From the NCBI RefSeq assembly GCF_003334785.1, contig NZ_QOWV01000002.1: 64,000 bases of DNA. One strand, 5' to 3'. The stretch is from Escherichia coli (GTDB lineage Bacteria; Pseudomonadota; Gammaproteobacteria; Enterobacterales; Enterobacteriaceae). Numbering within the stretch: position 1 is the first letter of the stretch; each line of letters begins with the position of its first letter. This document shows, in pieces, positions 48,001 to 54,000 of the stretch. The position numbers were made by a program.

Positions 48001-51000
48001 ATGCTGGGGTGTTTGTTTGTCTTGTCGGCGGTTATTGGGCTATTTATCTCTAATACCGCGACGGCGGTGTTGATGGCTCCGATTGCGCTGGCTGCTGCCA
48101 AAACGATGGGGGTGTCGCCTTATCCATTCGCGATGGTCGTGGCGATGGCAGCATCCGCCGCCTTTATGACACCGGTTTCTTCACCTGTTAACACACTGGT
48201 TTTAGGTCCGGGAAATTACAGCTTCAGTGACTTTGTGAAGTTGGGGGTACCGTTCACCATTATCGTGATGGCGGTTTGTGTGGTGATGATCCCGATGCTG
48301 TTTCCGTTTTGACAAGAGCCTGATGTCGCATCCGGCGCTTATTGCCTGATGCGACGCAGACTCCGGCTGCTTACAGCGGTGAATCCTGGCTAATCTCATC
48401 GAGCGAAAGATGGAAGCTGGGAACAAATATTTCCATGAAGTAGTCCATCTCCTGGCTGCGACGCGCTTCAAGCGTCGCTTCCAGTCGCGTTTTTGCCAGC
48501 AAGAATTCATTATTTCCGGCCGCGAGTTCTTCCAGACATTTCAGATATGCACACAGTGCATCTGCCTGTTTCACCAGCGATTTTTCTTCATCGCTATATG
48601 CATGCTCGTCAATTAACGGCGCAAAGATATCCCGCAGCTCTTCCGGAACCATATCGACCAGTTTTTGCTGAGCGATTTTTTCAATAGCCTTGTACTCCTG
48701 AGCGATTTGCGAATTGAAGTATTTCACCGGAGTAGGGAGATCGCCGGTGAGCACTTCTGAGGCATCGTGGTACATCGCCAGTAAAGCGATACGTTCGGCG
48801 TTGACATTACCGCCAAATTTTCGATTTTTGATAGCTGCCAGCGCATGGGCGACCATCGCTACCTGCAAACTGTGTTCGGACACATTTTCCGTCCGCACGT
48901 TGCGCATGAGCGGCCAGCGGTTAATGAGTTTCAGGCGGGAGAGATGGGCAAAAAAATGGCTCTGTTTCATAGTGACCTTACGTATGATGACATCATCAGG
49001 TCATTGTGGCGGGATAACGCTGCCGGATGCAATCTCCGGCAGTGAAATTAAGATTACAGCTGATGATAACCAGAAAGGAAACGCGCGAACTTGCTCAAAG
49101 ACAGCTCGATATCATCGACACGCGGTAGCGTGACAATGCGGAAGTGATCCGGCCACGGCCAGTTGAATGCCGTCCCTTGCACCAACAGAACTTTTTCCTG
49201 CAACAGGAAATCCAGCACCATTTTCTGATCGTCGTGAATGTTAAAGCGTTTGGCGTCGATTTTCGGGAACATATACAGCGCACCACGAGGTTTCACGCAG
49301 GAAACGCCCGGAATATCGTTGATCAGTTCCCACGCGCGGTTACGCTGCTCATAAAGACGACCGCCAGGGGTAATAAATTCACTGATGCTCTGATAACCAC
49401 CTAGCGCGGTCTGAATGGCGTGTTGCGCAGGAACGTTAGCACACAGGCGCATTGAAGCCAGCATTTCCAGACCTTCGATGTAGCCTTTGGCGTGTTTTTT
49501 CGGCCCGTTCAACACCATCCACCCCTGACGGAAGCCTGCAACGCGGTACGTTTTCGACAGTCCGTTAAAGGTAATGGTCAGCAGGTCAGGTGCCAGCGGC
49601 GCAATTGAGTGATGCTCAGCGTCGTCGTAGAGAATTTTGTCATAAATTTCATCGGCGAAGATAATGAGATTATGCTGACGTGCAATCTCCACAATCTCCA
49701 TTAAAAGCTCTTTGGAATATACCGCGCCGGTTGGGTTATTTGGGTTGATAATAACGATCCCACGCGTACGAGGCGTAATTTTAGCGCGAATATCATCGAG
49801 GTCCGGGAACCAGTCAGAGGATTCATCGCAAAGATAATGCACCGCTTTACCGCTGGAAAGCGAAACCGCCGCGGTCCAGAGTGGGTAATCTGGTGCAGGA
49901 ACCAACATTTCGTCCCCGCTGTTCAGCAATGCCTGCATTGCCTGAACGATAAGCTCCGATACACCATTGCCGATGTAAATATCTTCCACGGTAACATCAC
50001 GCATGCCACGAGCCTGGTAGTGCTGCATGATGGCTTTACGCGCGGAGTAAAGACCTTTGGAATCGCAATACCCTTGAGCGGTAGGCAGGTTGCGTATCAC
50101 GTCAACGAGGATTTCATCTGGCGCGTCAAAACCGAACGGGGCTGGGTTGCCGATGTTCAGTTTCAGTACCTTGTTACCTTCTTCTTCCAGGCGTTTTGCT
50201 TCTTTCAGCACCGGACCACGGATGTCATAACAGACATTCTCTAATTTGCTGGATTTTTCAATGGGGGACATGAATCTTGACCTTTTTTGCTGTTATCGCC
50301 ACTCCCTGCCGTGGAAGTCAGCTTAGAACAATGTACTCCCCCAGGACGGTGTTTTGAAGGTCTGCAGAATAAGATTTTGCCAGAGGGGAAGGCTCGATTG
50401 TGCTGTTAATAACTTAATAATGACAAAATAATGAGGTGTATATGCTTTACATGCAATGTTATATAGTGAATTGTTCTGATTCTTAATTGTAAGTCTGGTT
50501 TTTTTATCTGTAAGATAATTGTGTGAAAATGCCTCATTTAAGAATTCACTAATGAAACGCGATGATGATATTTCCTCATTACGGAGAGTTTAACTGCGTG
50601 ATGATTTCCGAGGTGTCGCAATGGGGGCAAGGTGTGAAACTATTGTTAAGCGGAATTAATGAATGAGGATGATGCTAATTAATTATTATTTAATATTCAA
50701 AAAGGTTTTGATGTGCTTATTAATAATAGAAGATTACTTTGCCTAACATAACATAACTTTGCATCAGATAATTCGCAATGACCCTTATAAATAAAAGGTT
50801 TTTGGGGTAAAATGCTCGGATAAATGACGGATCCCTGCTCTTGATGCCGCCTCACCATTGCTGTTGGTACGTGTTCGCGTATGACCAGCGATGCTGCACG
50901 AGAGTGGAACAAGGACTCACATTTACATTTATACAAACACGCGCATGTCATAAATAGAAAAGAGTGAGTAACTTAATAGATATGCGATCCCTGAAGATAT

Positions 51001-54000
51001 ATTCTGTGATCTACTTCAGGCATTATAACGGAACAATGTGAGTCGCTTTTTTAGTGCAACTCATATGCATTTTTACTTTCGTCCGGGTTCCGGATGAAAC
51101 TGCCAGGGAGGCACATTACAAATGGAATTGCTTGTTTGTGTGTGCACAGCATTAACCAGCTCAGTATGAGCCGCCAGTAAGTGATAATATATGATAAGTG
51201 CAAATCGTCCGATAATTAACCTCGACCTCGATCTGCTGAGAACATTTGTTGCTGTTGCCGATCTGAACACTTTTGCTGCCGCAGCTGCCGCTGTGTGTCG
51301 TACTCAGTCCGCCGTAAGTCAGCAAATGCAGCGTCTGGAACAACTCGTTGGGAAAGAACTGTTCGCTCGTCACGGTCGCAACAAACTGTTAACTGAACAT
51401 GGCATTCAACTTCTTGGTTACGCTAGGAAAATCCTGCGTTTTAATGATGAGGCCTGCTCATCATTAATGTTCAGTAATCTTCAGGGCGTATTAACTATCG
51501 GTGCTTCAGATGAATCTGCCGATACGATCTTACCTTTCCTGTTAAATCGCGTGAGTTCGGTTTATCCGAAATTAGCGCTGGATGTCCGCGTTAAACGTAA
51601 TGCCTATATGGCAGAAATGCTGGAATCCCAGGAAGTGGATTTGATGGTAACCACCCATCGTCCTTCAGCGTTTAAGGCATTGAACCTGCGTACCTCGCCA
51701 ACACACTGGTACTGCGCAGCGGAATACATATTGCAAAAAGGCGAGCCGATCCCTCTTGTATTGCTGGATGATCCTAGCCCGTTTCGCGATATGGTGCTGG
51801 CGACGCTTAATAAAGCAGATATTCCATGGCGACTGGCTTATGTCGCCTCGACGCTTCCGGCCGTTCGTGCGGCAGTGAAAGCCGGTCTTGGCGTGACGGC
51901 AAGGCCGGTTGAGATGATGAGCCCGGACCTGCGTGTGCTGAGTGGAGTAGATGGCTTACCGCCGCTACCTGATACCGAATATTTGCTGTGCTATGATCCG
52001 TCCAGTAATAATGAGCTGGCCCAGGTGATCTATCAGGCGATGGAGAGCTACCATAATCCGTGGCAATACAGCCCAATGTCTGCTCCGGAAGGGGATGATT
52101 CATTGTTGATTGAAAGGGATATCGAGTAATCGACGGACGATAGATAATTCCTGAGACAATAGTGTAAAAAACGAGCCGCTGGGGGTGTTTTAAACCCCAG
52201 CGGCTTTTTTTTAGTAAAAATCCTTCATCGCATAGTGCAGAACGTACAAAACTGTTCATTTTTCAACCACCAGAGATTCACGTCCCGAACGCACAAATAA
52301 TCGCCTGAAAAAAATCACCTGCTACAATGATGTTAAAAAATACGTAAATTTGTTGCTGCGTTTTTGTTATGGAATGACAAAAGCGTGTCACAGATCAAGA
52401 AAATACTCTCTTTTGGGGGGAGGAATCGACACAAATTCCTGTCAAAATAGACCCGTATTTTTTCCATTGCTTCACAACGGACACGATTCAACAACATCTA
52501 ATTATCCTGGAGTCGTCAAGGATCTGGGGTGAAAGGGCATTAAATGCTAATGGTGTTGATATTATGTAAACTAATGTGAAGAAACTTTTGTTAAAGTTGA
52601 CAAAAGGTTATAGAAAGGAGTAAAAAACCACATCAATTAGCTGTATAAAAGAATTTCTACAGTGATTGTAAGGTTTTTTTTATTCCTCCCCATGAATCGA
52701 TGTGGCGTCCATCTGCCGTGAAGAGCAGTGAATCTGGCGCTACTTTTGATGAGTAAGCAATGAGTATGTCAACATCCACTGAAGTCATCGCTCATCACTG
52801 GGCATTCGCTATCTTTCTTATCGTTGCCATTGGCCTGTGTTGCCTGATGCTGGTAGGCGGTTGGTTTTTAGGCGGTCGCGCACGCGCGAGGTCGAAAAAC
52901 GTGCCGTTTGAATCCGGTATCGACTCGGTCGGCTCCGCCCGCTTACGCCTGTCCGCCAAGTTTTATCTGGTGGCCATGTTCTTCGTTATCTTCGACGTTG
53001 AAGCGCTGTATCTGTTCGCATGGTCAACCTCTATCCGCGAAAGCGGCTGGGTAGGCTTTGTGGAAGCTGCAATTTTTATTTTTGTGTTACTGGCAGGTCT
53101 GGTTTATCTGGTGCGTATTGGCGCGCTGGACTGGACGCCCGCGCGTTCACGCCGCGAGCGTATGAACCCGGAAACGAACAGTATCGCTAATCGTCAACGC
53201 TAACCGCGAGGCATTAAGATGGATTATACGCTCACCCGCATAGATCCCAACGGTGAGAACGACCGTTACCCCCTGCAAAAGCAGGAGATCGTAACCGACC
53301 CTCTGGAGCAAGAAGTTAACAAAAACGTGTTTATGGGCAAGCTCAATGACATGGTTAACTGGGGTCGTAAAAACTCAATTTGGCCGTATAACTTCGGTCT
53401 TTCCTGCTGTTACGTTGAGATGGTGACTTCGTTTACCGCGGTGCATGACGTGGCGCGTTTTGGCGCAGAAGTATTGCGTGCTTCGCCGCGTCAGGCTGAC
53501 CTGATGGTGGTTGCAGGAACCTGCTTTACCAAAATGGCACCGGTTATTCAGCGTCTGTATGACCAGATGCTGGAACCAAAATGGGTTATCTCAATGGGTG
53601 CCTGTGCCAACTCTGGTGGTATGTACGATATTTATTCCGTTGTGCAGGGCGTCGATAAATTCATCCCGGTTGATGTGTATATCCCGGGCTGCCCGCCGCG
53701 TCCTGAAGCGTACATGCAGGCACTGATGCTGTTGCAGGAATCTATCGGCAAAGAACGTCGTCCGCTCTCCTGGGTGGTTGGCGATCAGGGCGTTTATCGC
53801 GCCAATATGCAATCAGAGCGCGAACGCAAGCGCGGTGAACGCATTGCCGTAACTAACCTGCGTACACCTGACGAGATTTAATTTGCGCCTGTCGGCAAAG
53901 GGATTTTTCTTCGCTTATTCCTAAATCTATTTCGCGAAGCTTACTGCGCCGACAGTCACCACGGACCATTTGCAATGGTGAACAATATGACCGACTTAAC

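Follow-up and report, generated by a model that had tools for sequence, protein, structure and literature searches.

In the 64,000-nucleotide stretch of Escherichia coli DNA analysed here (hereafter the window), the divergent genes alaA and lrhA are separated by 919 bp. This gap is very probably a regulatory spacer shared by the two genes, devoid of any independent gene and mostly serving lrhA. Within the long leader of lrhA, a palindrome flagged in the original prediction is, as judged from compensatory changes among relatives, an RNA hairpin with covarying arms across Escherichia, Citrobacter, Salmonella and beyond. The palindrome belongs to a CsrA-bound, structurally conserved module that also comprises two GGA motifs.

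Much of what acts on lrhA is already known, namely the long leader, the repression by the small RNAs (sRNAs) UhpU, ArcZ and RprA, a CsrA peak obtained by crosslinking and immunoprecipitation followed by sequencing (CLIP-seq), silencing by H-NS and activation by Lrp; no new kind of element is involved. The present work adds a coordinate-level map uniting these scattered results on one sequence, in which the palindrome appears as a covarying RNA hairpin beside a conserved dual-GGA module. It also brings three leads: a leader open reading frame (ORF), an 80-86-nt leader fragment, and a hairpin of the alaA leader that is conserved and whose loop is invariant. LrhA stands above flhDC (motility), fimE and rprA/rpoS, and its level therefore matters for E. 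coli lifestyle decisions. A 2026 paper places the CRISPR-Cas operon under LrhA as well.

Hairpin P1 and the dual-GGA module of the lrhA leader

One genome per species possessing LrhA was scanned, which gave 80 loci, and the alignment used throughout comprises 79 sequences (the window and 78 loci). All belong to the Enterobacteriaceae, the family to which the comparisons apply; the search for LrhA protein homologues returned only close Enterobacteriaceae proteins.

The palindrome, TTCGTCCGGGTTCCGGATGAA, announced near 51080, is indeed present at 51078-51098, and it folds as a hairpin, P1, extending over 51077-51099. It is followed by a mini-hairpin, P2 (Table 1). Together, P1 and P2 fold with -18 kcal/mol (z = -3.05 versus dinucleotide shuffles), and the loop of P2 displays a GGA in both the minimum-energy and the centroid structures. 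The arms of P1 differ between species yet stay complementary: E. coli has UUUCGUCCGG/CCGGAUGAAA, C. koseri UUUCACUUG/CAAGUGAAA and S. arizonae ACCUGG/CCAGGU. Over 14 sequences, the covariation score of P1 is 0.279 versus 0.193 for shuffles, a value higher than that of any of the 500 shuffles or any slid register. A covariance model built from these sequences matched 30 loci, including Kosakonia, Phytobacter, Trabulsiella and Franconibacter. In the model alignment (28 distinct sequences), double changes occur in 10 of the 12 pairs of P1 and P2, and 81.5% of the cells are paired versus 26-55% after sliding. The stem pairs of P2 vary little, so that covariation support for P2 is weak. Finally, the G-U pairs of P1 found in E. 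coli and E. albertii suit the lrhA-sense strand only, because they become A-C mismatches on the opposite strand.

Besides the GGA exposed by P2, which reads ARGGAUGC in many genera, a second GGA motif is located downstream. Both motifs are present in 62 of the 79 species and their spacing is constant, 17 nt. For comparison, a GGA is expected in a given 14-nt window of the distal leader with a background probability of 0.11. One CsrA dimer is said to bind two GGA sites over a spacing range of ~10-63 nt, as Mercante reportedly described in 2009. The combination of a hairpin with two GGA motifs led to CsrA being considered, and a published CLIP peak agrees with this. The interval of that peak, peak_226, spans P1, P2, both GGA motifs and a CACAGCA element described below. 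Its log2 enrichment is 1.15 (adjusted p 0.027), and the CsrA motif enriched in the same CLIP data is AuGGAug in a short stem-loop (PMC5694010). In a csrA mutant, lrhA ribosome footprints change by +1.01 log2 and lrhA RNA by +0.65 log2 (PMC5694010); the sign convention was checked with ompF, for which the text reports a decrease and the table a negative value. The GGA motifs overlap neither the ribosome-binding site nor the start codon of lrhA, but only those of a candidate leader ORF. In the literature searched, the module is listed in a supplementary table and no dissection of it was found.

Known and predicted pairing sites for small RNAs

An lrhA-lacZ translational fusion is repressed by UhpU, ArcZ and RprA (Melamed et al. 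2023). McaS gives the most chimeras with the lrhA leader in RNA interaction by ligation and sequencing (RIL-seq), yet has no effect on the fusion (Melamed et al. 2023). Repression by UhpU is lost, then restored, by compensatory mutations (Melamed et al. 2023), among which lrhA-M1 corresponds to C51175G when the lrhA-M1 gBlock is compared with the window. The UhpU site is located inside the conserved proximal block of the leader and is identical in 816 of 816 E. albertii genomes (PMC12704781). The ArcZ and RprA sites were given as predictions (Melamed et al. 2023). RprA was found on lrhA independently by MS2-affinity purification followed by RNA sequencing (MAPS), and RprA speeds lrhA mRNA decay (PMC5861431). 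A near-invariant CACAGCA, at 51145-51151 on the plus strand, is complementary to the UGCUGUG common to RprA and McaS; we infer from this complementarity a predicted RprA/McaS site. Unrestricted RNAduplex calculations of the sRNAs against the leader returned meaningless long-range duplexes and were discarded.

Promoter, start site and upstream DNA of lrhA

The 5′ untranslated region (UTR) of lrhA has a published length of 371 nt (Melamed et al. 2023), in agreement with the long leader that had been anticipated; the possibility that alaA and lrhA have only short leaders is contradicted by this published transcript map. The primer of the PBAD fusion used in the same study starts at TAAATGACGG, whose first base, after the vector +1, is window position 50821. 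Because this primer joins the PBAD +1 to TAAATGACGG and the UTR is 371 nt long, the +1 is placed at 50820. This position lies 7 nt past the TAAAAT -10 box. CTTATAA and TAAGAT/TAAAAT are kept in the 79-species alignment. The generic promoter scan missed this promoter because its -35 box is weak; the counts of the generic promoter and terminator scan were at shuffle level, and it was not used for promoter assignment. Among relatives the leader stays long: in the 65 species having a locatable promoter pattern, its median length is 395 nt (range 334-511 nt).

Upstream of the promoter lies a low-GC tract (0.327 over 404 bp), which would be the place of the reported H-NS-dependent repression of lrhA. 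H-NS strongly represses lrhA in BW25113 (PMC12968389), and lrhA is a direct target, activated by Lrp, in chromatin immunoprecipitation (10.1101/276808). Within this tract, one block (50632-50705) is more conserved than its flanks. It holds two ATTAAT palindromes (50655-50660 and 50678-50683), 23 bp or about two helical turns apart, as well as a 22-nt A/T run. Both palindromes are retained in most genera. The block probably carries transcription-factor sites, which might serve LrhA autoregulation, Lrp or H-NS nucleation. At the two ATTAAT palindromes themselves, LrhA might act on its own gene, or another dimeric regulator might bind.

Predicted promoter and leader of alaA

On the other side of the gap, TTCAAA and TACATT are invariant or nearly so in the 79 species and the spacer between them varies freely. 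The alaA promoter was assigned to these boxes because invariant boxes with a free spacer are the pattern expected of a real promoter. Thus, the claim that the gap holds the promoters of both genes is borne out by two conserved islands, one around the lrhA core promoter and one around the TTCAAA-17-TACATT of alaA. The alaA 5′ UTR is the most conserved non-coding block, with an identity of 0.6-0.9. It contains a hairpin beginning at +2 to +4 relative to the predicted start. Of the cells of this hairpin, 88.8% are paired over 64 distinct sequences versus 34-62% after sliding, and pairs 19-38 (AU/GC/GU) and 20-37 (CG/GC/UA) covary. Its U-G pairs work on the alaA-sense strand only. Its folding energy is unremarkable (z = -0.46). 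In the 79 Enterobacteriaceae, the loop and the inner stem are as conserved as coding sequence, and the outer stem covaries. Neither a known regulator nor an Rfam family explains this hairpin, which may stabilise the 5′ end of the mRNA or bind some factor. As a separate observation, alaA, which has no CLIP peak, is also more highly expressed in the csrA mutant (PMC5694010).

Organization and conservation of the gap

The alaA gene begins at 50271 on the minus strand and lrhA at 51191 on the plus strand, which leaves a gap of exactly 50272-51190. As originally predicted, this is AT-rich, gene-free DNA (about 920 bp according to the prediction) and the longest non-coding stretch, with a GC content of 0.384 versus 0.519 for the whole window and 0.327 for its central part. 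Among annotated intergenic gaps of the window, the runners-up are yfcV-sixA (680 bp) and lrhA-nuoA (630 bp). With 22 nt, the pure A/T run at 50676-50697 is longer than any other in the window. RefSeq annotates no feature at 50272-51190.

The window corresponds to E. coli K-12 MG1655 2393832-2457831 read in reverse complement, with 10 single-base mismatches over the 64 kb and none in the gap; coordinates were converted as window = 50272 + (2407560 - MG1655 coordinate). The differences at 49215 (alaA) and 51424 (lrhA) are synonymous, and the source strain is K-12-like, distinct from the MG1655 reference. The gap sequence was found in 5,426 of 5,426 complete E. coli genomes. In the alignment, the divergent alaA/lrhA order is present in 79 of 79 sequences, with gap lengths of 764-1140 bp. 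Conservation, measured as identity to E. coli in 20-nt windows over the 79 sequences, is concentrated in four islands (Table 1). The remainder of the gap, including most of the distal lrhA leader (50822 to ~51075-51100), has an identity of 0.2-0.4. The short direct repeats that had also been reported did not stand up. A search for direct and inverted repeats returned short, low-identity families only; the direct repeats form two- or three-copy families of 10-32 nt with 71-100% identity, indistinguishable from chance, and were dropped as a feature.

Table 1. Features of the alaA-lrhA gap. Positions are those of the window; negative distances are counted from the lrhA AUG unless stated otherwise.
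Feature	Position	Strand	Description
alaA 5′ UTR, predicted	50272..50323	-	~52 nt; ribosome-binding site AAAGG 8-11 nt before ATG
alaA leader hairpin	50299..50320	-	ACUUCC-ACGGCA-GGGAGU; 13-nt core CUUCCACGGCAGG nearly invariant
alaA promoter, predicted	50330..50358	-	-10 TACATT 50335..50330; -35 TTCAAA 50358..50353; 17-nt spacer
Conserved island: alaA leader and promoter	50272-50380		identity 0.6-0.9
AT-rich upstream regulatory DNA common to both divergent promoters	50381..50784		404 bp; GC 0.327; poorly conserved save one block
Conserved island: upstream block	50632..50705		-188 to -115 from lrhA start site; identity 0.5-0.68 vs 0.2-0.4 in flanks
Conserved island: lrhA promoter	50752-50820		identity 0.57-0.74
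lrhA core promoter	50785-50813	+	-35 TTATAA 50785-50790; 17-nt spacer; -10 TAAAAT 50808-50813
lrhA 5′ UTR	50820..51190	+	371 nt; distal part 50822-51075 fast-evolving, proximal part 51100-51190 conserved
Long imperfect distal hairpin	50837..50905	+	-28.8 kcal/mol; z = -2.85; stem foot exactly at 50905
lrhA-sense Term-seq 3′ end	50899		MG1655 2406933; LB OD 2.0 and M63 (Adams et al. 2021)
lrhA-sense Term-seq 3′ end	50905		MG1655 2406927; LB OD 0.4 (Adams et al. 2021)
lrhA-sense Term-seq 3′ end	51141		-50; MG1655 2406691; LB OD 0.4 (Adams et al. 2021)
CsrA CLIP-seq peak_226	51075..51161	+	MG1655 2406671-2406757; -117 to -31 (Potts 2017, PMC5694010)
Hairpin P1	51077..51099	+	UUUCGUCCGG-GUU-CCGGAUGAAA; 10 bp; -114 to -92
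Mini-hairpin P2	51101..51113	+	UGCC-AGGGA-GGCA; first GGA in loop
Conserved island: proximal lrhA leader	51102-51190		identity 0.53-0.79
First GGA	51107-51109	+	-84; P2 loop; at aligned position in 62/79 species
Second GGA motif, AUGGAAUU	51122..51129	+	GGA 51124-51126; -67; in 75/79 species
Candidate 15-codon ORF, MELLVCVCTALTSSV	51122..51169	+	ATG to TGA; GGAGG 51107-51111, 10 nt upstream
UhpU pairing site, GCCGCCAGU	51170..51178	+	-21 to -13
OD, optical density.

Transcript ends and a candidate reading frame in the leader

Three lrhA-sense 3′ ends have been mapped in the leader by Term-seq. Those at 50899 and 50905, with 25k-78k reads (Adams 2021), imply leader fragments of 80-86 nt, and the foot of the long distal hairpin falls precisely on the second one. 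Outside E. coli, even in E. albertii, neither the sequence nor the fold of this hairpin is conserved. The third end, at 51141, has a Rho score of 1.06, not classed as a Rho region, and a borderline intrinsic-terminator score of 3.75 (Adams et al. 2021); it is located 4 nt before CACAGCA. The tables of Adams et al. (2021) contain no alaA-strand 3′ ends within the gap.

The original prediction had found no ORF with a credible ribosome-binding site in the gap. The 15-codon ORF at 51122-51169, which is shorter than the 20-aa listing limit of the first ORF table, is at variance with this statement, as it has a GGAGG 10 nt before its ATG. Among the ten plus-strand leader ORFs of at least 8 codons, it is the one with a ribosome-binding site, and the two GGA motifs fall on this site and on the start codon. 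Its ATG is kept in 31 of the 79 species and missing in 48, 36 of the species having AAG, AGG or ACG instead; in C. amalonaticus, for instance, it is ACG. Across species, the ORF has 4-37 codons and the peptides diverge. It reaches 22-25 codons, with a TGA overlapping the lrhA ATG as ATGA, in 12 species (Citrobacter, Salmonella and two others); in Escherichia it stops 21 nt before the lrhA AUG. At loci L005, L006, L010-L013 and L016-L018 (Citrobacter spp. and Salmonella arizonae), such a 22-25-codon ORF, for example MELFVSECTALTRYDPRVSEKL, lies ~70 nt before lrhA. The ATGA stop/start overlap is a classic translational-coupling arrangement. A text search of the literature for an lrhA upstream ORF or peptide gave no match. 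The ORFs of at least 20 aa in the gap, among them one of 43 aa on the minus strand at 50406-50537, were rejected, being in unconserved AT-rich DNA or lacking a ribosome-binding site.

Alternative readings

It had been suggested that the gap could hide an sRNA or a small protein. Concerning the first, the 80-86-nt species or a ~322-nt species ending at 51141 might be an independent trans-acting RNA or a sponge. The 3′ ends are indeed seen in all three growth conditions, with reads similar to or above those at the 3′ end of the lrhA mRNA, and the 5′ fragment folds stably down to its last base (z = -2.85); moreover, McaS forms chimeras without repressing, and Melamed et al. suggest that the leader may inhibit McaS. 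An independent sRNA is nevertheless unlikely. The start site is shared with lrhA, with no promoter of its own, and 50822-50905 is unconserved in sequence and fold in E. albertii and other Escherichia. The sequence complementary to McaS lies downstream of 50905 and is thus missing from the short fragment. Neither is there an Rfam counterpart: a scan of 49500-53000 with E values up to 10 gave only chance-level matches to unrelated families. As no U-rich terminator follows the 3′ ends, trimming back to the hairpin is simpler, and the simplest reading of the 80-86-nt species is that of trimmed leader fragments rather than products of a separate sRNA gene. From the original suggestion, a separate sRNA gene is therefore not retained on the basis of the Rfam and terminator scans, whereas a plausible leader ORF and leader-derived 3′ ends are. 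For the small protein, it may be imagined that the ORF at 51122-51169 encodes a leader peptide and that CsrA and the sRNAs control lrhA through its putative translation, by coupling or re-initiation as in iraD. The GGAGG, its coincidence and that of the start codon with the GGA motifs of the CsrA region, and the ATGA overlap in 12 of the species that keep the ATG speak for this possibility. Sequence and length are highly variable, however, and conservation follows the GGA rather than the start codon, because the adjacent GGA is found in 75 of the 79 species and the ATG in 31; this reading is accordingly considered rather doubtful. In the Escherichia-Citrobacter-Salmonella group, a tentative and equally doubtful version would be that the hairpin and the two GGA motifs form a CsrA switch acting on the short leader ORF with coupled re-initiation, leaving the ribosome-binding site of lrhA untouched, perhaps together with the sRNAs that pair downstream. 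If true, this would be a second mechanism of the iraD type, placed atop the motility and RpoS hierarchy.

Other roles conceivable for the palindrome at 51077-51099 are that of a DNA operator bound by a dimeric protein and that of a terminator or attenuator of transcription. Its inverted repeat is near-perfect and folds on the opposite strand too (z = -2.87), and a Term-seq 3′ end with a borderline intrinsic-terminator score of 3.75 lies 42 nt downstream. However, P1 is followed by ACUGCCAGGG and not by a U-tract, so that P1 is not a terminator; the terminator scan likewise gave no terminator-like site inside the gap. As for an operator, what is conserved is the pairing and not the sequence of the arms, the signature of an RNA structure over a protein operator, and the G-U pairs of E. 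coli and E. albertii turn into mismatches on the other strand. The palindrome is, in addition, 257 nt past the start site, inside the CsrA-crosslinked RNA segment. An operator or terminator is thus highly improbable. That the spacer beyond the two core promoters would be functionless AT-rich filler is scarcely credible. Most of 50381-50630 and 50822-51075 is at 0.2-0.4 identity, as would be expected from filler, but the divergent pair is kept in 79 of 79 species with a gap of at least 764 bp and a leader of at least 334 nt, conserved blocks are found well away from the core promoters, and inputs of H-NS, Lrp, sRNAs and CsrA are documented in the literature.

Against the reading as a regulatory spacer, the following points have to be weighed. 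The usual occlusion of a ribosome-binding site by CsrA is not directly applicable here, because the GGA sites are 67-84 nt before the AUG. Support for CsrA consists of one modest CLIP peak and a two-fold change in a hypomorphic mutant, both at genome scale. The covariance-model alignment is fitted to the structure, and its counts therefore lean towards structure. Windowed duplex energies of ArcZ, RprA, McaS and UhpU fall within the range of shuffled leaders, the UhpU site being the only one pinned. The transcription-factor sites within the gap are candidates. On the alaA side, the start at ~50323 (MG1655 ~2407509), and with it the ~52-nt leader, is deduced from promoter conservation.

A model for the shared spacer

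With these reservations, the preferred interpretation of the gap as a shared divergent spacer may be detailed as follows. On the alaA side, ~90 bp would carry a conserved sigma-70-type promoter and a ~52-nt leader with a 5′ hairpin. The next ~400 bp of AT-rich DNA would be the place of the H-NS silencing and Lrp activation of lrhA described in published work. Transcription of lrhA starts at 50820, and the 371-nt leader is the site of post-transcriptional control. Its last 115 nt present, in order, P1, the two GGA motifs, CACAGCA and, just before the ribosome-binding site, the UhpU site. According to published data, UhpU, ArcZ and RprA pair here via Hfq and lower LrhA synthesis; binding of CsrA would decrease lrhA expression about two-fold, as suggested by the genome-scale data. 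A drop in LrhA derepresses flhDC and rprA/rpoS, so that these inputs reach the decisions on motility and stress. Over its distal 250 nt, the leader evolves fast but is kept long in relatives, and the E. coli hairpin located there would account for the 80-86-nt fragments.

Neighbouring observations

CsrA CLIP peak_225 (~52084-52187) covers the stop codon and the 3′ end of lrhA. The following lrhA-nuoA gap (52130-52759, 630 bp) is likewise long and AT-rich. It contains strong Term-seq orphan 3′ ends 10-14 nt before the nuoA start codon (MG1655 2405082/2405086, ~52746 and 52750), with reads up to 476k, and a further one at MG1655 2405297 (~52535). GC is lowest within the window in the yfcV-sixA gap (~1550-2250, 680 bp), upstream of the yfc fimbrial operon; it falls there to 0.29 over 400 nt, and the gap includes an uninterrupted A/T run of 21 nt at 2150.

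An IS1-family element is found in the matched stretch of ten among the complete E. coli genomes that match best (isolates from pig, duck and human), and ISApl1 in one more. At the only locus inspected (L002), IS1 occupies positions 1667-2434 and lies inside the lrhA coding sequence, at window 51257-51265 (codons 23-25), with a 9-bp target duplication. A location of IS1 in the spacer is thereby ruled out for this locus. These insertions suggest recurrent inactivation of the motility repressor LrhA. Finally, the database LrhA entries P0001, P0003 and P0099 have 375-382 aa, exceeding the 312-aa protein by ~63-70 residues at the N-terminus. An in-frame TAA at 51185-51187 makes such an extension impossible in the window. 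These entries are probably mis-called starts inside the leader of other assemblies.

Comparison with known systems

The alaA hairpin may be compared with the stem-loop that stabilises the ompA mRNA at its 5′ terminus. Like it, the alaA hairpin would be located 2-4 nt from the predicted 5′ end; it is conserved and shows some covariation. Unlike it, its loop ACGGCA is invariant, which is not required of a pure structural stabiliser, and the alaA start is a predicted one.

The lrhA leader resembles other CsrA-bound leaders by its pair of GGA motifs with a 17-nt spacing, of which the first occupies a hairpin loop, by its CLIP peak and by an expression that is up in the csrA mutant. It differs from them in that the sites are 67-84 nt from the AUG and the ribosome-binding site is clear, which makes direct occlusion unlikely. 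In Yersinia, expression of rovM, which encodes the LrhA orthologue, depends on CsrA, and CsrA reportedly raises rovM (Heroven 2008, cited in PMC5835112). On this account, an orthologous regulator gene is under CsrA in both cases, whereas the reported effect on rovM is opposite in direction to that on lrhA. A third comparison is offered by iraD, where repression by CsrA reportedly goes through a short ORF that lies upstream of the main gene and is coupled to it, as Park and co-workers are said to have found in 2017. As in iraD, the CsrA sites of lrhA coincide with the ribosome-binding site and the start of a short leader ORF, the stop of which overlaps the lrhA start in Citrobacter and Salmonella. 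In contrast to iraD, the lrhA leader ORF is a candidate, 48 of the 79 species lack its start codon, and in E. coli it ends 21 nt before the AUG.

Lastly, rpoS, flhDC and csgD have long leaders that are sRNA hubs, and ArcZ, RprA and McaS have targets among them as well. All three validated sRNAs repress lrhA and none activates it, in contrast to these hubs, and the conserved target region of lrhA is restricted to the last 90-115 nt, the distal 250 nt evolving freely. With rpoS, flhDC and csgD, lrhA nevertheless shares a UTR of several hundred nucleotides that precedes a global regulator and receives several Hfq-dependent sRNAs (UhpU, ArcZ and RprA, and McaS as judged from chimeras).

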